DNA of 64,000 bases from Acidimicrobiia bacterium (GTDB lineage: Bacteria > Actinomycetota > Acidimicrobiia > Spongiisociales > ZC4RG35), in NCBI GenBank assembly GCA_041747375.1, contig JBGTFH010000003.1:8324-72323 (forward strand), written 5' to 3'. Each line of letters starts with the position of its first letter. Position 1 is the stretch's first letter. The notes under the pieces were generated by a model that saw only the letters and a program-made list of their open reading frames with translations, was not told the origin of the DNA and did no database searches. Below, in pieces: positions 2,584 through 56,521 of the stretch. The position numbers were made by a program, and so were the translations under genes.

Positions 2584-3780
2584 TTATCCCAACTCGGCCC
2601 TCGCCACCGATCGGCGGTGCACTTCATCGGGACCGTCGGCGATCTGGAGCCATCTTCCCATCGAATACAACTGGGCCAGGGGGAAGTCTTCGGTGAATCC
2701 CGCGGCGCCGAACAGCTGCATTGCCCGGTCGGCCACGTAGACGAGCAACTCGGGAGCGGCCACCTTGATCGCAGCAATCTCGGTGCGAGCAGCCTTGGTG
2801 CCCATCGAATCGATCATCCATGCGGTCTTGAGCACAAGGAGACGGGTCTGCTCAATCCGAATCCTCGCGTTGGCGATCCACTCGCGGATCACACCTTGCT
2901 CGGCAAGTGGCTTGCCAAATGTGACCCGTTCTTTGGACCGGCTCACCATGAGGTCGAGGCACCGTTCGGCGGCACCTATCGCCCTCATGCAATGGTGAAT
3001 TCGGCCCGGGCCCAAGCGAGCCTGGGCAATGGAGAAGCCGCCGCCATCTTCGCCGAGCAGGTTGGAGGCGGGCACCCTGACATCGGAGAACTCGATCTCG
3101 GGGTGACCGCCACGGTCCTGGTAACCAAACACCGTCGGTTCTCGGACGATGGATACGCCGGGAGTCTCCATCGGGACCAGGATCATCGACTGCCTTCGGT
3201 GAGGTTCGCCGTCGGGGTTGGTCACACCCATCACTATCGAAACCTTGCATCGGGGCGACGCTGCCCCTGAGGAGAACCATTTCCGACCGTTGATGACGTA
3301 TTCGTCATCCACCCGTCGCATCTCCGTCTGGATGTTGGTGGCGTCCGAACTCGCCACGGCGGGTTCGGTCATCGAGAAACACGAGCGTATCTCCCCGTCG
3401 AGGAGCGGAGCAAGCCACTGCTCTTTTTGTTCGGGCGTACCGAACATATGAAGGATCTCCATATTCCCAGTGTCCGGAGCCGCGCAGTTGATGGCTTCGG
3501 GTGCTATCGAGGGACTCCAGCCAGTGACCTCCGCGAGCGGGGCATATTCCAAGACAGAGAGTCCGGCCCCCGCCTCTTCGTCGGGAAGAAACAGATTCCA
3601 CAAGCCGAGAGAGCGCGCCGATGCCTTGAGATCATCCAGGATCGGAGGGTAGAAGTGGGGGTCCCCCGACTCTTCCATCTGGGACCGGTAAACCGCCTCA
3701 GCCGGAAAGACATCCGAATCCATGAATCCGCGTAGGACCCCCTGTAGCTCCACAACTCGATCGCTGTATGAGAAATCCAT
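2584..3780 (-). CDS. acyl-CoA dehydrogenase
   Basis: ACAD-like motifs. The likely start is the internal Met 'MDFSYSDRV' (ATG at 3780-3778); the 45-aa N-terminal extension in the ORF track is Arg-rich junk. Confidence 0.8.
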
Positions 3781-3790
3781 GGTCGAAACG

Positions 3791-4552
3791 CTAGCTGTCG
3801 GGTTCCGCCGTCGGGTCGTCAACCACGTCGACCCACTCGACCGGTGACTCTTCGGGTGCAGGGTCCAATGTCGGGGCATTGAAATCGAAAACCGGCATAC
3901 TCGCCGGCTGTTCAAGGCCCCGTCCCCGGGTGAGCTCCCCCCAAAGCAGCCACCCCGAAATCAGGGCCACGAAGATGAGTCGAAACCTGATGGCGACGAT
4001 GAGCGAAATGGCGGCCATGGCGAGAAAGGTGATATTGGCGATCTTCTCGCCGCTCCGGGGGGCGATCTTCTCCAACAGCGAGGTGAACAGGTGGCCGCCG
4101 TCGAGGGGACGGATTGGTAGCCAGTTGAGGAGTCCCCAGAAGACATTTACCAGAATCAGATTCTCCAATCCGAAGGACACCACGGGCGAATAGGGGCCGA
4201 ATTGAGTCGAAACCGCCCAGACCACTGCGCCAAAGAGCAGCCCCACGGCAGATCCGGCCGCGGCAATCAAAGCGCGCCGACCCGGCCCGATTTCGGTCTC
4301 CGGAATGGTCCATGACGTGAGGCCACCAATCCCGTTGAGTTCGATCGCAACGTCTGACCCGTAGTGCCGGGCCGTCAAGGCATGACCTAATTCGTGGATC
4401 AGTATCGAAACGAAGATGACCCCGACCCAGATCAGCACCAGGTCGAGACGATTCGACTGCAAGCCGAGAAGGGCTGCAATCAGCAGAAAGGATGGTCGGA
4501 CCTCGACCGGGATCCGAAACAGGCTGAATTTCACATCCTCATGATGGCGCAT
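3791..4552 (-). CDS. site-2 protease family (M50) zinc metalloprotease
   Basis: HELGHAL zinc motif plus multiple TM segments. The start is taken at 'MRHHEDV' (ATG 4552-4550) rather than the Arg-rich upstream extension. Confidence 0.7.
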
Positions 4553-4594
4553 CCGGGGAGATTCGCGAGTCCGTGTACCCGTTAATCTGGTCCG

Positions 4595-5944
4595 ATGCCA
4601 TATGACACCCTGAGAAACGCAGTCTCCGCCGACATGCCCCGCCTTCGCTCCGTGCTCGAGGACCTCGTCCGAATCCCTTCCATCAGCGCCCCAGGATTCG
4701 ACCGGGCGGATGTCAAACGAGCGGCCGAACACATTGTCGATCTTCTCGATGCCTCCGGCTACTCCGACGCCCGGCTATTGGAAGTCGATAGTGGTAATCC
4801 CGCCGTCTTTGCCGAGAAGCCGGCACCGGAAGGGGCACCGACGATTCTTCTCTATGCCCATTACGACGTGCAACCGCCCGGCCCTGCCCACGAATGGGAG
4901 ACCGGGCCTTTTGAGCCGTTCGAGAAAGACGGTCGCATCTACGGCCGTGGTGTGTCAGACGACAAGGCGGGGATAGTCATGCACCTCGGTGCTGTGGCCG
5001 CCCACGGCGACAAGCTGCCCGTGGGTGTCCAGGTCTTCTTCGAGGGCGAGGAAGAGGCAGGGTCGGAATCGCTCGAAGAAATCCTCAACAAGTACTCCGA
5101 TCTCCTCCATCCCGACGTGATCGTCATCGGGGACGGGGGAAACTGGGCGGTCGGTGTACCTGCTTTCCTCACCTCGCTCCGGGGTCTGGCGGCAGTAACG
5201 ATCGAAGTGCGAACGCTCAACTCTGCGGTGCACTCGGGTCAGATGGGCGGTGTGTTCCCCGATGCTCTGACAGCAATGGTCAGGCTCCTTGCCACCCTTC
5301 ACGACGACGAAGGCAATGTAGCCATCCCGGGCCTGGTGAGTGAAGAGGTCGAGGGGCTCGACGTTCCTGAAGCCCTGGCCCGACATCTGGCCGGAGTTGT
5401 CGACGGCGTGGAGGAAATCGGGACCGGGTCGATACCGTCCCGACTGTGGACCAGGCCAGCGGTGTCGATACTGGCCCTCGACGCTCCCGCTGTGAGCGAG
5501 GCCATCAACCAGTTGGTGCCCGTGGCCCGGGCCAAAGTGAGTATGAGGATTGCACCGGGGGAGAACTCTGTCGCCGCCCTGCAGAAACTAAAAGACCATC
5601 TGGTGGCAAATGCCCCCTGGGGGACGACGGTTGAATTCATTCACTCAGAAAGTGGAGAAGCCTCGACCCTCGACACCGACAACGAGACGGTGGCAGCGTG
5701 GAGCGAAGCCTTCAAAGAGGCATACGGGACCGACCCCGTTCATATGGGCGCTGGTGGTTCGATCCCATTCATTGCCACTTTTGCCGAGATGTTCCCGGAA
5801 GCCCCCATCCTGGTCATTGGATGTGGCGACCCGTTGTCAGCGATCCACGCACCCAATGAGAGCCAGGACATCGCCGATGTCGAAAAAGCGACCCTCGCCG
5901 AAGCAATCGCCTTCTCGATGCTGGCTGAAGTCTCCTCGAGCTGA
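4595..5944 (+). CDS. M20/M25/M40 family dipeptidase
   Basis: 449 aa; peptidase M20 metal-binding residues (HYDVQP, GVSDDK, EGEEE). Confidence 0.8.
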   Translation: MPYDTLRNAVSADMPRLRSVLEDLVRIPSISAPGFDRADVKRAAEHIVDLLDASGYSDARLLEVDSGNPAVFAEKPAPEGAPTILLYAHYDVQPPGPAHEWETGPFEPFEKDGRIYGRGVSDDKAGIVMHLGAVAAHGDKLPVGVQVFFEGEEEAGSESLEEILNKYSDLLHPDVIVIGDGGNWAVGVPAFLTSLRGLAAVTIEVRTLNSAVHSGQMGGVFPDALTAMVRLLATLHDDEGNVAIPGLVSEEVEGLDVPEALARHLAGVVDGVEEIGTGSIPSRLWTRPAVSILALDAPAVSEAINQLVPVARAKVSMRIAPGENSVAALQKLKDHLVANAPWGTTVEFIHSESGEASTLDTDNETVAAWSEAFKEAYGTDPVHMGAGGSIPFIATFAEMFPEAPILVIGCGDPLSAIHAPNESQDIADVEKATLAEAIAFSMLAEVSSS

Positions 5945-6180
5945 GGCAAGACCATTTTCTCCCCCGGATCGTCTCGGCTAAGCCGAGACGCATCGACAGG
6001 GGGGAGTGGGACCGTCCCCTTGAAGGGGACGGTCTCGAGGGGGGATTTGAAACCGTGCCGAAACCTTGGATACGGTTTCGCGACTACCTCAAGACCCCCT
6101 TCCCCCTGCGCCTCGGCTGCGCCGAGTCACGGGGACTTCCCCCAAAGGGGGAAGAAGCCTTTCTCCCCCTTGAAATCAGC
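5945..6180. repeat. cluster of at least four GC-rich hairpins between convergent genes, extending into the trmL 3' end
   Basis: Perfect palindromes are cgtctcggc-taa-gccgagacg; gaccgtcccctt-gaaggggacggtc; cgaaaccgt-N15-acggtttcg; ctcggc-tgc-gccgag; and cttccccc-aaa-gggggaag. The last one encodes the trmL C-terminus. Confidence 0.6.
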
Positions 6181-35980: not shown

Positions 35981-36030
35981 GACGTGAAACTTAACTAAGA
36001 ACGATCGGTTGGTTACCCTTTCCACTTCCC

Positions 36031-36507
36031 ATGACCGAAGAAACCACCTTCCTCACCCCTGCCGCGTTCAAAAAAATGCGGAAGGAATTGGAGCTGCTCA
36101 AGACAGACGGTCGTCACGAGATCGAGGACCGGATCGCCGAAGCACGCTCACACGGCGACCTCCGCGAGAACGCCGATTACGACGCAGCCAAAAACGAGCA
36201 GGGACTCATGGAAGCGCGAATCCGAAAGATCGAGCACTTGCTCCGAACCGCTGAGGTGCGCGAAGTCGAAGACTCAGGCCTCGTCGAAATCGGGTCGGTG
36301 GTGACTGTCGTCGACGATGACGGTGAAGAGATGGAGTTCTTTGTCGCACCTCAAGAAAACAAAATACCGGGGGTTCTTCTCGCCTCACCGGATAGCCCGC
36401 TCGGGGGTGCGATGATCGGGGCGGCAATAGGCGACACCGTCGAATACGACGCCCCGGCAGGAAAACTCACCGTCACCATCAAGTCAGTGCGACCATACGA
36501 GGCCTAA
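36031..36507 (+). CDS. greA: transcription elongation factor GreA
   Basis: 158 aa with an N-terminal coiled coil bearing acidic tip residues, plus an FKBP-like C-terminal domain. Confidence 0.85.
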   Translation: MTEETTFLTPAAFKKMRKELELLKTDGRHEIEDRIAEARSHGDLRENADYDAAKNEQGLMEARIRKIEHLLRTAEVREVEDSGLVEIGSVVTVVDDDGEEMEFFVAPQENKIPGVLLASPDSPLGGAMIGAAIGDTVEYDAPAGKLTVTIKSVRPYEA

Positions 36508-53282: not shown

Positions 53283-54431
53283 ATGGTTGAATTAGTAAAA
53301 CCCCAACAAAAGATCCGGGAGCTCACGAATTCGGCGCGCCGCATACCGATCGAGATCGATGGGGCCAGCACCTATGAAGTGGTCCTCACCATTTGGAGTG
53401 CCTTTTCCAGCAAGCACGACGGGGAGAACCTCGATGTCGGGGCAGACTGGATCGCAGACATCGTTTCCTCCACCCCCGACGACCTCGACGCCGAACTCCG
53501 ACTCCTCGGTGGGCCGCATTGCAGCATCTGGCTGAGTGTGCTCGGCCTTATCGCCATCGCCCCCCACCCCCACGACCCCGAAAGTGTCCTGTCATGGATG
53601 AAGCAGCTGAATCCGGACCGACTCCGGCGTTGGATCCTCGGATACATCGGCCAGCAGGCCGCCGACTACAACCTTTCGGACGCTCCGTCGGCCTCTCTGG
53701 TCGAGGAAGCCGCCTCGGGTGACTCCGGCGCCCTGCTCACCGTGCTCGGTAACGGCAAGGAACCCGCCGAGCGCGACGAGTTCGTCGAGTTATTCACCAT
53801 GGAGCCGGACGAGTACAGAGACCGCCTCGTTGATGCACTGTCCCGATTCAACGACGAAGTGTTTTCCCGACACCACGAAGAATTCGGATCAGCGATTTCC
53901 CGGGCAGCCACAGCTCGCCGGGCGATGGCGACCCGTGACAGTGCCAAGGATGTGATCGAGCAGGTGACCAACGGATTGGACTACGAGATCCCATTCGGGG
54001 TAACCCGGGTAGTGCTGATCCCCTCAGTCGTCCTCCGGCCCCTCTCTCTTATCGACAGGCATCGAGAGATGCTCTTGGTCTTCTATGCGCTCGCTGATGA
54101 CTTCTTGATCAACAATCCGGAAGCGCCACCGGCCTGGATGGTGAAGTTCTACAAGGCCATGAGTGACGAGAAGCGGCTACGAATCCTCCGCCGTTTGTCC
54201 GAGGGAGACACCTCGCTCGACGAACTGACCACGATGCTCGATATCTCGAAGTCGACAGTCCATCACCACATAACGATTTTGAGGGCTGCCGGTCTGATTC
54301 GAATTCAGATCAGGCCCAACGAGGAAGGCAAAGAAGCGAAGTGTTACGGACTTCGGCCGCAAGCCTTCGAGGATGCCTCCGCATTCTTGGAGAGCTACAT
54401 GCGGCCCGTCCCCGAAACCGCACTCGCCTGA
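53283..54431 (+). CDS. ArsR-type HTH regulator with about 300-aa uncharacterised N-terminal domain
   Basis: C-terminus LRILRRLSEGDTSLDELTTMLDISKSTVHHHITILRAAGLI is an ArsR winged helix. The N-terminal domain has no recognisable motifs, and the 5' end is AT-rich. Confidence 0.6.
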   Translation: MVELVKPQQKIRELTNSARRIPIEIDGASTYEVVLTIWSAFSSKHDGENLDVGADWIADIVSSTPDDLDAELRLLGGPHCSIWLSVLGLIAIAPHPHDPESVLSWMKQLNPDRLRRWILGYIGQQAADYNLSDAPSASLVEEAASGDSGALLTVLGNGKEPAERDEFVELFTMEPDEYRDRLVDALSRFNDEVFSRHHEEFGSAISRAATARRAMATRDSAKDVIEQVTNGLDYEIPFGVTRVVLIPSVVLRPLSLIDRHREMLLVFYALADDFLINNPEAPPAWMVKFYKAMSDEKRLRILRRLSEGDTSLDELTTMLDISKSTVHHHITILRAAGLIRIQIRPNEEGKEAKCYGLRPQAFEDASAFLESYMRPVPETALA

Positions 54432-54457
54432 ACTGGAGAAAGAAAGTGAACCCTTTT

Positions 54458-54661
54458 ATGTACAACGAAGAAACCAACTACCGGATGGAATTACTCCAGA
54501 CGTCGGCCAATCACAGACGTATGGCAAACGCCGCAAAGGCGCACGCCATGCACCGGGGCCACTCCTTGCGAGGGGCACTCGGAAACGGACTCATCGCCCT
54601 CGGATCGAAGCTAACCGTACCTCCCACGGGCGAAAGCTTCGATTACGACAAGGCTGCATGA
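54458..54661 (+). CDS. small hypothetical protein (67 aa, His/Ala-rich)
   Basis: ATG sits behind a purine-rich stretch (ggagaaagaaag). A perfect 13-bp hairpin (54678..54707) follows it. Confidence 0.25.
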   Translation: MYNEETNYRMELLQTSANHRRMANAAKAHAMHRGHSLRGALGNGLIALGSKLTVPPTGESFDYDKAA

Positions 54662-54677
54662 GTTTCGTCCTACAGGT

Positions 54678-54707
54678 GGATTTGGACCACTCAGGTGGTC
54701 CAAATCC
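54678..54707. terminator. perfect hairpin GGATTTGGACCAC-TCAG-GTGGTCCAAATCC
   Basis: 13-bp arms with a 4-nt loop, directly 3' of the small ORF. Confidence 0.5.
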
Positions 54708-54720
54708 CCACTCAAGCGGG

Positions 54721-54928
54721 TCTTGTTCCTTCCCCTCTGGGGAAGGTGGATCCGCCGCTTGCGGCGGAGACGGATGGGGACCCCAAAGCACCCACACAAG
54801 CTCTATGCGCGACATTCTCACACCCCCTCCGCCCATTCCTATTCGGAATGGCCACCTCCCCCGTTCGGCTCCGCCTCCGGGGACGGAATCGGAACGCGGC
54901 TCCGCCTCCGGGGAAGGAATAGGAACTA
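54721..54928 (+). repeat. MITE/REP-like structured repeat, copy A (about 208 bp)
   Basis: Begins tcttgTTCCTTCCCC and ends GGGGAAGGAAtaggaac (terminal inverted repeat). Internal hairpins are ccttcccc-tct-ggggaagg, tccgccgc-tt-gcggcgga and ccattcc-tattc-ggaatgg. A 25-nt internal tandem duplication reads gcggctccgcctccgggga(a/c)ggaat(a/c)ggaac. Confidence 0.7.
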
Positions 54929-54936
54929 ATCCCGGG

Positions 54937-55145
54937 TCTTATTCCTTCCCCTCTGGGGAAGGTGGCTCCGCCGCTTGCGGCGGAGACGGATCGGGACCCT
55001 AAAGCACCCACGCAAGCTCTACGCGCGATCTTCTCCGTCCCCCTCCGTCTCGATCCAAGGCGATCGAGCCACCTCCCCCGTTCGGCTCCGCCTCCGGGGA
55101 AGGATCAAGAACGCGGCTCCGCCTCCTGAGAAGGAATAGGAACTA
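54937..55145 (+). repeat. MITE/REP-like structured repeat, copy B (tandem with A, about 90% identical)
   Basis: Same architecture as copy A. Its 3' end supplies the last roughly 13 codons of the DUF559 gene. Confidence 0.7.
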
Positions 55146-55494
55146 GTTCATCTTCAAGCCGGCCCACCGTGTATGAAATAGTGTCCCGCACCATCTGGTT
55201 CGCGCTGAAGACCTCCCAAGACCAAAAGCGAAGAATCGTCCAACCTGCATCACGAAGGCGTTGATCTCTAATTCGGTCGTATTCGGAATCGCGGTGTTGA
55301 GATCCATCCGACTCAACAATCAGCATTATCGAGACACATGCAAAGTCCACGATGTAGCCGAGGACTACGTATTGGCGTCGGAACTTCACGCCGTAGCGAT
55401 GTCCCTTCAATTCCCACCACAGCCTCCTCTCGGCAAAGTTGAGCTTTCGTCGGTTGTCTCGTGCGTTGTCCGACAGTTCATCTATCCGTCTCAT
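55105..55494 (-). CDS. DUF559 (Vsr-like PD-(D/E)xK) endonuclease-domain protein
   Basis: ...LWWELKGHRYGVKFRRQYVVLGYIVDFACVSIMLIVESDGSQH...DAGWTILRFWSWEV matches the DUF559 consensus. Start taken at MRRIDE. Confidence 0.7.
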   Translation of the reverse strand: MRRIDELSDNARDNRRKLNFAERRLWWELKGHRYGVKFRRQYVVLGYIVDFACVSIMLIVESDGSQHRDSEYDRIRDQRLRDAGWTILRFWSWEVFSANQMVRDTISYTVGRLEDELVPIPSQEAEPRS

Positions 55495-55538
55495 GCTCGA
55501 GTGTCGCCGTTCAGCCAGAACATTGAAACCCCCTCGTC

Positions 55539-55612
55539 GGTTCCTGTTCCTTCCCCTTGGGGAAGGTGGCTCCGCCGCATCCCGGGTCCCGGGACGGATC
55601 AAGAACGGGCTA
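55539..55612 (+). repeat. partial third copy of the same repeat (about 75 bp)
   Basis: Reads ggttcctgttccttcccc-ttggggaaggtgg-ctccgccgc...ggacggatcaagaacgggct. It overlaps the 3' end of the proline dehydrogenase gene. Confidence 0.55.
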
Positions 55613-56521
55613 ACCGCCGAAAAGAGCTCTGGCGAAGAACCACATATTGGCCGGACGCTCGGCCATTCGCCGGGTTAGATAGGGGTACCACTGCGAGCCA
55701 AAAGGCAGATAGATCCGTACCGGGAAACCTTCGCTGACGAGTGACTCCTGCAGATCGGACCTGACTCCGTACAGCATCTGAAACTCGAAATAGCTGATTC
55801 TCTGCGGCGATAGCGATCGCGCTGCTTCGATGAGACGGGGGTCGTGGGTAGCGACCGCCGGTTTCGTTCCCTCGGCGGCCATCAACACCTTCAGGTATTC
55901 CTGATATGCCCCATCCACCGCCGCTTTCACACCGAGTGCCACCTCGCTCGATTCAACGTATGCCCCCTTGCACAATCGGATGTGTCCTCCCAGCGGAATC
56001 AGTCTCTCCAGGTCGTCGCGGGTTCGCTTCATATACGCCTGAATGGCTATCCCGAGATGCCCGATCGACTCTTGGACCTCGGCATAGATATCAACTGTCT
56101 GGCCGGTGAATCGAGAATCCTCCATGTCAATGGTCACGGTTGTGCCCGCCGCGGCCGCCCGACTGGCCAATTGCTCCACCGCGTGACGGGCCAGGCGTTC
56201 ATCGATGCTCAAACCCAACTGGGTCAGTTTCACGGAGATATTGGCGTCGAGGCCATCGACGTCGATGCGCTCCAGACAATCCATATATTCATGCAAGGCC
56301 GTCTCGGCGGAGACCTTGTCGTGGACTTCCTCACCCAGTAGGTCAAGGGAGAGGAGGAATCCCCGCTTGTTCAAATCCCGGCCGACGTCCACGGCCTCGT
56401 CAAGGGTGTCACCGGCCACGAACTTCTTGGCCAGTGCGAGTCCCGGTTTGGTTTCGGTGATCAGTGACTTCACAGGACGGGCCGCCGTCGCACCTACTAC
56501 AGCCCTGGTAAAGATGGTCAA
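55610..56521 (-). CDS. proline dehydrogenase (monofunctional PRODH)
   Basis: 303 aa with a PutA-type TIM-barrel PRODH signature (...RIYLPFG..WYPYLTRR..E...). Confidence 0.75.
   Translation of the reverse strand: MTIFTRAVVGATAARPVKSLITETKPGLALAKKFVAGDTLDEAVDVGRDLNKRGFLLSLDLLGEEVHDKVSAETALHEYMDCLERIDVDGLDANISVKLTQLGLSIDERLARHAVEQLASRAAAAGTTVTIDMEDSRFTGQTVDIYAEVQESIGHLGIAIQAYMKRTRDDLERLIPLGGHIRLCKGAYVESSEVALGVKAAVDGAYQEYLKVLMAAEGTKPAVATHDPRLIEAARSLSPQRISYFEFQMLYGVRSDLQESLVSEGFPVRIYLPFGSQWYPYLTRRMAERPANMWFFARALFGG

Follow-up and report, generated by a model that had tools for sequence, protein, structure and literature searches.

A widespread family of structured bacterial repeats and its regular companion, a gene for a Vsr-like DUF559 nuclease

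The window, a 64,000-nucleotide stretch of a contig from an Acidimicrobiia bacterium, contains three copies of a repeat around an intact DUF559 gene, namely two tandem elements of about 214 bp, A (54717-54930, plus strand) and B (54933-55147, plus strand), and one short element, C (55544-55606, plus strand). Element A (direct-repeat families D1 and D3) comprises an inverted doublet of a module, M, and a duplicated 31-nt 3' end, and element B is a second inverted doublet in tandem with A. The two lie head to tail with a period of 216 nt, and their alignment (A1) contains two long ungapped blocks of 90-91% identity, the blastn identity being 86% over 213 nt. Their terminal inverted repeats are TTCCTTCCCC and GGGGAAGGAA (inverted pairs I8 and I14), and a 26-nt unit is duplicated internally at a spacing of 31 nt. 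The initial annotation of this DNA had described tandem copies of about 90% identity with inverted termini and three perfect hairpins, all of which are present in the sequence, as well as the internal duplication, whose unit it had given as 25 nt. The 24-nt core occurs twice in the window against 0.00 occurrences expected from shuffles, and both strands of the repeats fold better than shuffled sequences (z = -3.2 to -4.0; -3.3 and -4.0 for element A). Since the copies in the window are 86-96% alike, they are not recent.

In the window, the module is about 57 nt long and consists of an invariant hairpin, P1 (CCTTCCCC/GGGGAAGG), a second hairpin, P2, of variable sequence and preserved pairing, and the tail GACGGATGGGG. 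Module matches were scored with a covariance model of the module, R1, and both R1 and the alignments fitted to it are biased towards their own source structure. The 5' module of A, M(+) (54723-54782, plus strand; 59.9 bits, E = 7.5e-18), has the order P1 CCTTCCCC-TCT-GGGGAAGG, TGG, P2 TCCGCCG-CTTG-CGGCGGA and the tail GACGGATGGGG, while its 3' module, M(-) (54820-54891, minus strand; 35.5 bits, E = 1.2e-9), has a 17-nt loop in P1, the P2 hairpin CCATTCC-GAATA-GGAATGG and the tail GCGGAGGGGG. The corresponding modules of B are M(+) at 54939-54998 on the plus strand (57.4 bits, E = 5.4e-17) and M(-) at 55036-55108 on the minus strand (35.8 bits, E = 9e-10). The P2 hairpin of the latter, CTCGATC-GCCTTG-GATCGAG, is unlike the equivalent P2 of A in sequence and retains the pairing. 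Element C (direct-repeat families D2, D4 and D5) is a solo module (32.6 bits, E = 1.1e-8) lying upstream of DUF559 at about 50 nt from the start of the gene, with P1 at its gene-proximal end. A degenerate third copy had been proposed here; a copy is indeed found, at 55538-55607, and a single module accounts for it at least as well.

The gene enclosed by these elements (55105-55494, minus strand) encodes a protein of 129 aa with an ATG start, a DUF559 (Vsr-like PD-(D/E)XK) nuclease of Pfam family PF04480. This family, which includes E. coli YcjD, comprises widespread small nucleases whose role is, to our knowledge, largely uncharacterised. The protein matches the Pfam profile over positions 3-105 of 109 with 99.9 bits (cut-off 20.6; E = 9.4e-29). 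Against the NCBIfam model for YcjD (PRK09767) it scores 86.5 bits (E = 1.4e-24), compared with an equivalog cut-off of 218, and is thus a homologue and not an equivalog. All 18 invariant columns of an alignment of nine proteins (A4) are present in it, and the residues D50, E61, D63 and H67 of the Vsr-like active site are invariant across the nine. The A4 profile matches PDB entry 3HRL at 1e-35, while matches of the DUF559 profile to the homing endonuclease I-Bth0305I (3R3P, E = 0.0076) and to Vsr (E = 0.022) are both weak. Gene calling on Logan contigs gives this gene as well. A DUF559-domain protein of Caulobacter, VsrA, triggers the SOS response in vivo and has a functional connection with a cytosine methyltransferase (PMC12907096). 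A role in anti-phage defence was considered and set aside, the matches being just weak ones to C-terminal domains of large defence proteins, as was a plasmid vehicle, DUF559 homologues occurring in 33 of 72,556 plasmid records, several of them chromosome-sized.

The suggestion that the repeats have remodelled gene ends holds on one side of the locus. The last 13 codons of DUF559 and its stop codon (55105-55146) are encoded by element B, as first described. The proline dehydrogenase gene on the other side ends with a stop codon at 55610-55612, and element C, which had been thought to overlap its 3' end, merely abuts it, ending 3 nt short of that codon. The AT-rich block noted at the start of the surrounding stretch lies at 53.0-53.45 kb (GC content of 47-48% versus 60%) and corresponds to the intergenic region that separates two divergent genes; the proposal of an acquired islet would be an argument from composition only, that is, from this AT-rich promoter region and a DUF559 gene of about 52% GC.

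No further full copy was found in the window by blastn. A possible degenerate module in an intergenic region (6093-6159, minus strand; 16.3 bits, E = 0.0032 window-wide, which is weak evidence) has P1 arms CTTCCCCC/GGGGGAAG, a 29-nt insert and the tail GGGGAAGGGGG, and lies beside a bare P1-type hairpin (6012-6032). Another match of R1 (36013-36090) partly coincides with the beginning of an ORF with an apparently GreA-like product and is considered spurious. Searches of the window revealed no tRNA or tmRNA, and no terminator-like or promoter-like sites within its repeats. Two independent short-read contigs from Logan (L001 and L002) terminate at the identical base within element B, and the relatives of the organism that were found are either identical at the repeat locus or broken at the repeat.

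The exact 21-nt core of P1 was found at at least 119 loci, against a chance expectation estimated at about one match. Among the matches listed, the hosts include Acidimicrobiia and other Actinomycetota, Bifidobacterium, Alpha- and Gammaproteobacteria, Clostridia and Bacteroidaceae, single metagenome-assembled genomes carry 5-11 such loci, and the hairpin is followed by NCGGAWGRGG in 109 of 134 instances. Because the loci with the exact core are spread over many phyla, several per genome, the repeats represent a dispersed family and not a local duplication. The repeats of the window therefore belong to a structured-repeat family that is very widespread and present in many bacterial phyla. Restriction to this locus had been named as the outcome that would speak against a mobile family; at the level of the family, dispersed copies were found. 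R1 yields 364 matches at E <= 0.001 in these loci, including some opposite-strand matches to the same P1 palindrome. In viral contigs the exact core has a single match, which does not indicate a phage vehicle.

Across the family, the 5' arm of P1 consists entirely of pyrimidines and the 3' arm of purines, P2 is optional and free in sequence, and the tail is G-rich, reading GGATGRGG or GGGTGAGGGG. With a TCGA loop, P1 is a perfect 22-bp palindrome. Some modules stand alone (as C does), and others form inverted pairs with facing tails (elements A and B) or tandem arrays; they also flank DUF559 genes on either side. Both hairpins are conserved in structure. The P2 positions are paired in 92.7% of cells, and 125 cells with changes on both sides were counted versus 44 in shuffles, a number reached in none of 500 shuffles; when the P2 partner is slid, the paired fraction drops to 46-60%. 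In the flanks of DUF559 genes, the pairing of P1 amounts to 99.7%, and seven of its eight pairs show compensatory changes, nearly all of them between C-G and U-A.

The association with DUF559 was examined in both directions. Among the ORFs of the at least 119 listed repeat loci, the DUF559 cluster (seven loci) is the sole real-looking gene family that recurs across distant phyla. Two ORF clusters that ranked above or level with it were rejected, on inspection of their sequences alone, as spurious GC-rich ORFs and translated repeat. The exact motif lies within 500 bp of the gene in six of the seven DUF559 loci, and R1 matches flank the genes. The reverse test used 80 DUF559 loci from unrelated metagenomes, which were chosen without reference to the repeat, with an alignment of four proteins as the query. 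In these loci, 97 of the 126 R1 matches lie within about 110 nt of the ends of the DUF559 gene, which corresponds to 4.16 matches per kb at the gene ends versus 0.134 per kb elsewhere, a difference of about 31-fold. A count of perfect pyrimidine-first hairpins, which is independent of the model, gives 4.98 per kb near DUF559 versus 0.247 per kb far from it (about 20-fold), and perfect purine-first hairpins number zero near the gene and one far from it. All 18 inspected DUF559 loci negative for R1 have a similar hairpin adjoining the gene, imperfect or long-looped in two of them (L141 and L186). DUF559 is thus the regular companion of the repeat family, in a tight and oriented association that extends across phyla. 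The initial annotation had treated the gene as a bystander and looked to a cognate transposase elsewhere; the evidence makes DUF559, rather than a distant transposase, probably the partner of the repeats.

The usual layout is M(+), start codon, DUF559 gene, stop codon and M(-), in units of 405-521 bp, and the sequences outside these units differ between most loci. The tail of the module often abuts the start codon and resembles a ribosome-binding site, and many of the modules that flank DUF559 have no P2. Two layouts can be distinguished, in which the gene lies either inside a doublet or between doublets; the second is found in the window, in Salinarimonas (L079), in Synechocystis and in Deinococcus. 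This lack of a uniform geometry counts against a reading of the system as REP/RAYT-like. Similar hairpins are present on both sides of the DUF559 genes of Sinorhizobium, Synechocystis and Deinococcus, and the Neisseria gene is preceded by a degenerate copy and followed by another, which begins about 180 nt downstream. Around 37 M-DUF559-M units there is no excess of target-site duplications, the longest shared k-mer averaging 3.68 versus 3.45 +/- 0.17 in shuffled pairs, nor any excess of inverted flanks over shuffled pairs. Of the mobile family originally suspected, the dispersed REP/MITE-like character (at least 119 loci) is borne out, and target-site duplications were not found. Integron cassettes, type III toxin-antitoxin repeats and CRISPR were rejected as models, since the modules flank the gene in inverted and not direct orientation and no integrase is present, and the match to CRISPR-DR8 is weak and off-register. 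A connection between these repeats and DUF559 was not reported in any paper that we found in the literature open without subscription.

In E. coli, a BoxC repeat is located about 170 nt downstream of the DUF559 gene ycjD, and its identity was confirmed by a match to published BoxC sequences (PMC2267715, supplement). BoxC is described as a repeat of about 50-56 bp present in 22-32 copies in E. coli and in other enterobacteria (table of PMC2267715). A 56-nt query taken from the ycjD-adjacent BoxC has matches in all 5,426 complete E. coli genomes, at a median of 18 places each, while ycjD occurs, as a single copy, in 3,378 of the 5,426, so that BoxC is kept without ycjD in 38% of them. By analogy, a universal multi-copy BoxC combined with a single-copy ycjD is the pattern of REP repeats and their RAYT genes. 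No clean empty site was found at the ycjD locus, where strains lacking ycjD carry an RND efflux operon. The persistence of BoxC without ycjD, the lack of target-site duplications, the lack of a clean empty site and the fact that the copies in the window are not recent are observations that count against a REP/RAYT-like reading.

On balance, the repeats and DUF559 probably form a REP/RAYT-like system with a Vsr-like nuclease as the associated protein; the analogy would extend to cleavage and mobilisation. The DUF559 gene with its flanking modules would represent the parent or partner unit, and the nuclease may recognise or cut the module, which could serve as its substrate in the form of a long palindromic duplex or of an extruded hairpin. 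A, B and other doublets without a gene would then be non-autonomous copies, made or maintained through the activity of the nuclease together with host replication and repair, and the copies would have spread by this route. A PD-(D/E)XK nuclease alone is incapable of strand transfer and spread would therefore need host functions. A broader proposal, which we put forward tentatively, is that DUF559 proteins including YcjD are the dedicated nucleases of an ancient, RAYT-independent REPIN-like system that is present in most phyla and unites BoxC, at least some CGTC-tagged REPs and perhaps whalefall-1.

Alternatively, DUF559 could be a selfish gene resembling those of homing endonucleases, which inserts into or between pre-existing repeats that spread otherwise or serve the host. 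The commonest layout places the gene exactly at the position of the spacer in a gene-less doublet, the fold is common to that of the intron homing endonuclease I-Bth0305I, the 22-bp P1 palindrome is a plausible site for a dimeric nuclease, and the presence of ycjD varies among E. coli strains that all have BoxC. However, genomes usually have one or two DUF559 genes and many doublets, so the doublets are not being filled, and in the second layout the gene lies between doublets. Moreover, classic homing disrupts its target, whereas both palindromes are intact here. This alternative appears unlikely.

A role of the modules as RNA, that is, as untranslated-region structures or small RNAs that stabilise, terminate or regulate, with DUF559 being regulated or acting as an RNA-binding or RNA-cutting protein similar to RAP/FASTK, is to be doubted to the same degree. 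It would accommodate the compensatory changes in both hairpins, the resemblance to whalefall-1 (25.1 bits), which extends over the entire model and takes in the CUUG loop, the ribosome-binding-site-like tails abutting start codons and the intergenic position of most copies; RNA-acting Vsr-like folds are known (title of PMC11879112). On the other hand, no U run follows the hairpins and the repeats contain no terminator-like site, neither the window nor 38 loci give an Rfam match that attains the cut-off, and doublets without a gene are found in either orientation and also as tandem arrays. The elements are also nearly symmetric on both strands, P1 being identical on both, which suits recognition as DNA better.

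It is considerably less probable that DUF559 is an ordinary very-short-patch mismatch-repair nuclease located where REP-like repeats accumulate, with no functional link to them. The tie of Caulobacter VsrA to a cytosine methyltransferase (PMC12907096) and the weak sequence similarity to Vsr would fit such a function, but not the 20-31-fold higher density of repeats at the gene ends in fixed orientation and abutting start and stop codons across many phyla and unrelated contexts, a pattern found for no other gene family among the at least 119 listed repeat loci. Finally, a purely local duplication without any family, to which the lack of a second full copy in the 64-kb window could point, is almost certainly wrong given the exact core at at least 119 loci elsewhere, the 364 R1 matches and the weak second site in the window.

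Publications have dealt with BoxC from the 1990s at the latest and with CGTC-tagged REPs from 2013, and we know of no partner protein for either. The association of the repeats with DUF559 merges two puzzles, orphan repeats and an orphan nuclease, into one question that can be put to E. coli, namely whether YcjD acts on BoxC, and it explains both the intact DUF559 gene among the repeats of the window and the repeat-derived C-terminus of its product. If YcjD binds or cuts BoxC, there would be a second route, based on a nuclease class unlike RAYT, by which bacteria acquire and keep families of structured intergenic repeats; if the RAYT-independent reading is true, the orphan repeats would gain a partner and a large orphan protein family a function.

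Among known nucleases, I-Bth0305I and Vsr illustrate that the Vsr-like PD-(D/E)XK fold spans an enzyme of selfish elements and a nicking repair enzyme, although the DUF559 gene here lies in no intron and has no methyltransferase linked to it. DDE-type MITEs differ in having target-site duplications outside their terminal inverted repeats, no excess of direct repeats being seen outside the 37 M-DUF559-M units. The nearest Rfam family is whalefall-1 (RF01762), with scores of 25.1 bits, for the 5' module of A, and 21.7 bits that remain below the cut-off of 37. Like the module, it has two hairpins in the same order, with a 3' arm rich in purines, and a tail resembling GGGUGAGGAC, and copies A and B cover its full model (positions 1-56) with a CUUG tetraloop on the second hairpin. 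Neither the window nor 18 repeat loci contain any match at the Rfam gathering threshold, and at E <= 0.01 a search of 20 DUF559 loci returned no whalefall-1, just a spurious microRNA match. Whalefall-1 was described from whale-fall metagenomes only, as a free-standing non-coding RNA that its authors considered certain to be RNA (Weinberg et al. 2010, PMC2864571).

The CGTC-tagged REPs of Di Nocera et al. 2013 (PMC3733652) are characterised by a CGTC tag, a CCA tail and a loop of 4-5 nt. The complement of P2 likewise reads as CGTC, a stem-loop and CCA; in A and B this is CCGTC-TCCGCCG-CAAG-CGGCGGA-(T/G)-CCA, with both the tag and the tail, and GACG follows P2 in 84 of 109 instances (about 77%) among the matches listed. 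Head-to-head dimers predominate in CGTC REPs, and the GACG/CGTC ends face each other in A, B and most other doublets. The fit is partial, the CGTC REPs being defined by 8-9-bp stems that open with two A/T pairs and by loops of 4-5 nt, whereas the P2 stems have 5-10 bp, often a T-A pair at the first position alone, and loops of 3-5 nt; moreover, the definition of the CGTC family includes neither the P1 hairpin nor the G-rich tail.

BoxC shares the plan of the module, a pyrimidine-first hairpin, CCCCTCGCCCC/GGGGAGAGGG, followed by the G-rich tail TTAGGGTGAGGGG, and is dispersed and intergenic, as are most copies of the module; many DUF559 flanks from metagenomes are nearly identical to BoxC. Unlike the modules of the window, it has neither the P2 hairpin nor the tail GACGGATG, and the elements of the window are 214-bp inverted doublets with a duplicated end. 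R1 gives the ycjD-adjacent BoxC 10.2 bits, and the modules of the window share just its architecture, showing no direct blastn match to BoxC and departing in sequence from its consensus (CCCCTCGCCCC...GGGGAGAGGGTTAGGGTGAGGGG).

The comparison with REP/REPIN sequences and their RAYT proteins (TnpA-REP, HUH Y1) reveals clear differences, in that the associated protein here is a Vsr-like PD-(D/E)XK nuclease of about 105-130 aa and not an HUH tyrosine transposase, no Y1/RAYT transposase cluster was seen on inspection of the ORF clusters of the at least 119 listed repeat loci, and the GTAG tag is absent from the repeats. In both systems, nevertheless, short palindromic modules form inverted doublets that fold into long hairpins, gene-less copies are numerous in each genome, target-site duplications are absent, and one or a few genes for an associated nuclease, as in the window, in Salinarimonas (L079) and in E. 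coli, are flanked by repeats of the family that is dispersed through genomes.

Two long repeat elements, A (54717-54930) and B (54933-55147), are arranged head to tail with a period of 216 nt, and a short third copy, C (55538-55607), is located beyond the DUF559 gene, where the initial annotation had placed it. The two tandem copies, proposed to be about 90% identical, were confirmed: identity is 90-91% across two long ungapped blocks and 86% across 213 nt (blastn). Both elements begin with TTCCTTCCCC and finish with GGGGAAGGAA, in agreement with the bounding termini described earlier, and the three hairpins named there were found in both. One internal hairpin reads CCATTCC/GGAATGG in A and CTCGATC/GATCGAG in B with pairing intact, and this change of sequence with retained pairing hinted that structure had been conserved and that the two are more than a plain duplication. 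The internal duplication, reported as 25 nt, is a 26-nt unit recurring at 31-nt spacing. The window contains 2 instances of the 24-nt core, for which the expectation is 0.00, and the repeat region folds better than shuffled sequence on both strands (z -3.2 to -4.0). Copy C had been thought to overlap the 3' end of the proline dehydrogenase gene, but it stops 3 nt short of that gene's stop codon and so abuts the gene without overlap. Two independent Logan short-read contigs terminate inside B at one and the same base, which is consistent with a repeat, although the tandem pair alone could be a sufficient cause. With 86-96% likeness between them, the window copies are old.

The DUF559 gene (55105-55494, minus strand, 129 aa; Pfam E 9.4e-29) lies between B and C, and exactly 13 of its terminal codons are located in B, matching the approximately 13 claimed. 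The AT-rich block noted at the beginning of the 53.1-55.6 kb stretch corresponds to a divergent intergenic region at 53.0-53.45 kb. Together with the GC content of the DUF559 gene (~52% vs 60% for the window), this composition is the sole evidence bearing on the proposal that the stretch may be an acquired islet. Immediately upstream of the repeats, a 382-aa protein is encoded (53283-54431), in which the sole domain is a C-terminal ArsR-type HTH (residues 293-341). A 106-aa ORF (54341-54661) overlapping the end of that gene has no Pfam match. It is followed after 17 nt by a perfect 13-bp hairpin, GGATTTGGACCAC-TCAG-GTGGTCCAAATCC (54678-54707), directly ahead of A. This hairpin, with no T-run behind it and overlapped by a weak CRISPR-DR8 match (23 bits), does not belong to the module family.

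A scan of one genome per species with the exact query TTCCTTCCCC, 2-4 nt, GGGGAAGGTGG revealed at least 119 loci, while by our own estimate about 1 match to the 21 specified bases is expected by chance. The hosts listed comprise Acidimicrobiia, other Actinomycetota, Bifidobacterium, Salinarimonas, Hyphomicrobiales, Methylobacterium, a gammaproteobacterial MAG, Clostridia, Bacteroidaceae and others, and among the matches listed some single MAGs carry 5-11 loci each. The supposed mobile family is a dispersed one, present with its exact core at these loci elsewhere. No target-site duplications were found around units made up of a DUF559 gene and its flanking repeats. The aligned matches reveal a module, M, of ~57 nt, consisting of a hairpin P1 (CCTTCCCC, loop, GGGGAAGG), a linker TGG, a second hairpin P2, the sequence of which varies from copy to copy, and a tail fitting NCGGAWGRGG in 109 of the 134 instances among the matches listed. 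P2 shows strong covariation: 92.7% of alignment cells are paired, falling to 46-60% when the partner is slid, and double-change cells number 125, whereas shuffles give 44 and none of 500 attains the observed count. The full element is an inverted doublet, M(+), spacer and M(-), in which the two tails base-pair. R1, a covariance model built for the module, places M(+) and M(-) of A at 54723-54782 (59.9 bits) and 54820-54891 (35.5 bits), those of B at 54939-54998 (57.4 bits) and 55036-55108 (35.8 bits), and a solo module without M(-) in C at 55544-55606 (32.6 bits).

Three Actinomycetota MAGs (L074, L085 and L105) carry modules or doublets in tandem, 2-3 or more at a time (periods of 92, 121 and ~110 nt), so the tandem arrangement of the window is common in the family. 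A degenerate module (6093-6159, minus strand; a weak 16.3 bits with R1) occurs in an intergenic, hairpin-rich stretch, 6010-6160, which also contains a P1-type hairpin, CCGTCCCC-TTGAA-GGGGACGG (6012-6032), followed by a G-run (6012-6045 in all); an ancient doublet of the family may have stood in this stretch. In P1 the pyrimidine arm always comes first and the purine arm second, whichever strand is read.

All ORFs of the at least 119 loci were clustered, and among the matches listed only one cluster that recurred in distant phyla resembled a true gene family, namely DUF559 (7 loci). On sequence alone, the two clusters that equalled or exceeded it in rank were judged to be spurious GC-rich ORFs and repeat translations. 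In 6 of the 7 loci, no more than 500 bp separate the DUF559 gene from the exact motif, and R1 matches directly flank the genes, with M(+), DUF559 and M(-) at 1794-1848, 1895-2230 and 2286-2338 in L051, at 2696-2747, 2777-3070 and 3095-3141 in L020, and at 4408-4460, 4493-4837 and 4809-4860 in L094. In Salinarimonas (L079), two DUF559 genes alternate with doublets.

Conversely, 80 loci from unrelated metagenomes were chosen by DUF559 protein only and then searched with R1. Matches fell within ~110 nt of the DUF559 gene ends in 97 of 126 cases, with a density of 4.16/kb there vs 0.134/kb elsewhere (~31-fold). A model-free count of pyrimidine-first perfect hairpins gave 4.98/kb near DUF559 vs 0.247/kb far from it (~20-fold). 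Such hairpins outnumber purine-first ones by 155 to 1 in DUF559 loci, the single exception being far from the gene and none near it; pairing by itself does not account for this polarity. All 18 R1-negative loci inspected have a like hairpin adjoining the gene, imperfect or long-looped in L141 and L186. Most commonly, M(+) ends 0-70 nt short of the start codon and M(-) begins at the stop codon or just past it; these M-DUF559-M units measure 405-521 bp, and the outer sequences are unlike between most loci. Alternatively, doublets stand on either side of the gene and turn their P1 hairpins towards it, as in the window, Salinarimonas, Synechocystis and Deinococcus. P2 is optional in the metagenomic flanks, while P1 variants (CCTTCCCCCC, CCTCTCCCC, CCTTCTCCC and others) are 99.7% paired in an alignment that is biased to the structure because it was fitted to the model. 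Compensatory changes occur at 7 of 8 P1 pairs; almost all of them exchange C-G for U-A or the reverse, and the pyrimidine-then-purine polarity is thereby retained. The association of the repeats with DUF559 genes, and its geometry, are established.

In many DUF559 proteins the C-terminus is encoded by the adjoining module, the stop codon commonly being within a hairpin; examples are PIPSQEAEPRS (window 55105-55145), TFPKGKEQD (L020), RSPSP (E. coli YcjD, L204 2408-2420) and the gene ends of L079. In a BoxC-like subfamily (L124-L203; L204 2204-2245), the P1 purine arm and tail form a canonical G-quadruplex motif, e.g. GGGGAGAGGGTTAGGGTGAGGGG. Such motifs reach 3.85/kb beside DUF559 genes vs 0.19/kb elsewhere, nearly all module-oriented, which suggests a possible hairpin/G-quadruplex switch in this subfamily; the window's own copies have G2 runs only and lack the canonical motif.

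In cultured organisms, hairpins were found on both sides of the DUF559 genes of Sinorhizobium, Synechocystis and Deinococcus, and the Neisseria gene has a degenerate copy upstream and a second copy beginning ~180 nt downstream. The DUF559 gene ycjD of E. coli K-12, on which NCBIfam PRK09767 is based, is followed after ~170 nt by CCCCTCGCCCCTCTGGGGAGAGGGTTAGGGTGAGGGG, listed in a supplement as a BoxC repeat (PMC2267715), and many metagenomic DUF559 flanks are near-identical to BoxC. A 56-nt query from this BoxC copy has matches in every one of the 5,426 complete E. coli genomes (median of 18 places per genome), while the single-copy ycjD is present in 3,378 and absent from 38%. Between ycjD and the BoxC copy (L204 2262-2370), a decayed duplicate of the ycjD 3' end (ATGGAGACGGTGCTGGAGAATATTCGGCAAGGTCTGAACCG...) followed by GGGTTAGGGG resembles what is left of another DUF559 unit, a possible intermediate between gene-bearing and gene-less elements. 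In E. coli SCU-115 (L205), the sole ycjD-less strain examined, the place of ycjD between sapF and fabI is taken by an RND efflux operon with a TetR regulator, and homology breaks off ~40 nt from the BoxC copy.

Among solved structures, the DUF559 profile matched 3HRL (1e-35), I-Bth0305I (0.0076) and Vsr (0.022), and the acidic and histidine residues do not vary among the aligned proteins. A Caulobacter DUF559-domain protein causes an SOS response in cells without a cytosine methyltransferase (PMC12907096), an indication that one protein of this family damages DNA in vivo. We infer that DUF559 may recognise or cut the module, and that gene-less doublets could be made or kept through this activity together with host replication and repair. 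When its loop is TCGA, P1 reads as a perfect 22-bp palindrome; this suits a dimeric nuclease, and the sequence could also extrude as a hairpin. To our knowledge, a PD-(D/E)XK nuclease alone is incapable of strand transfer, which is a weakness of this model, and the retention of BoxC in E. coli strains without ycjD and the age of the window copies also argue against it. One rival is that the DUF559 gene homed into repeats already in place, and I-Bth0305I, matched by the profile, is an intron homing endonuclease; another is that the modules act at the RNA level. That the repeats lie beside a repair gene by coincidence is unlikely because of the 20-31-fold enrichment and fixed orientation.

Structured intergenic repeats with this plan are already known, namely BoxC and the CGTC-tagged REPs. 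On the complementary strand, P2 and its neighbours take the form of the latter (CGTC, stem-loop, CCA), which are chiefly head-to-head dimers reported without a dedicated transposase (PMC3733652). In the openly accessible literature, we found no report of BoxC or CGTC REPs sharing a module with a cross-phyla family, or of DUF559 genes regularly bracketed by such repeats, for which an earlier description is possible. The nearest Rfam family, whalefall-1, matched over its full model, including the CUUG loop, with a best score of 25.1 bits vs a cut-off of 37, and gave no match at E <= 0.01 on 20 DUF559 loci; we treat it as a resemblance and claim no membership. The pattern is that of REP/RAYT (REPIN) systems: one or two repeat-flanked nuclease genes, numerous inverted doublets that contain no gene, arrays in tandem, and a lack of target-site duplications. 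This four-part pattern leads us to favour the model in which DUF559 would act on the module. The difference lies in the enzyme class, and the repeats and DUF559 gene of the window are best regarded as a putative REPIN-like system with a Vsr-like nuclease.
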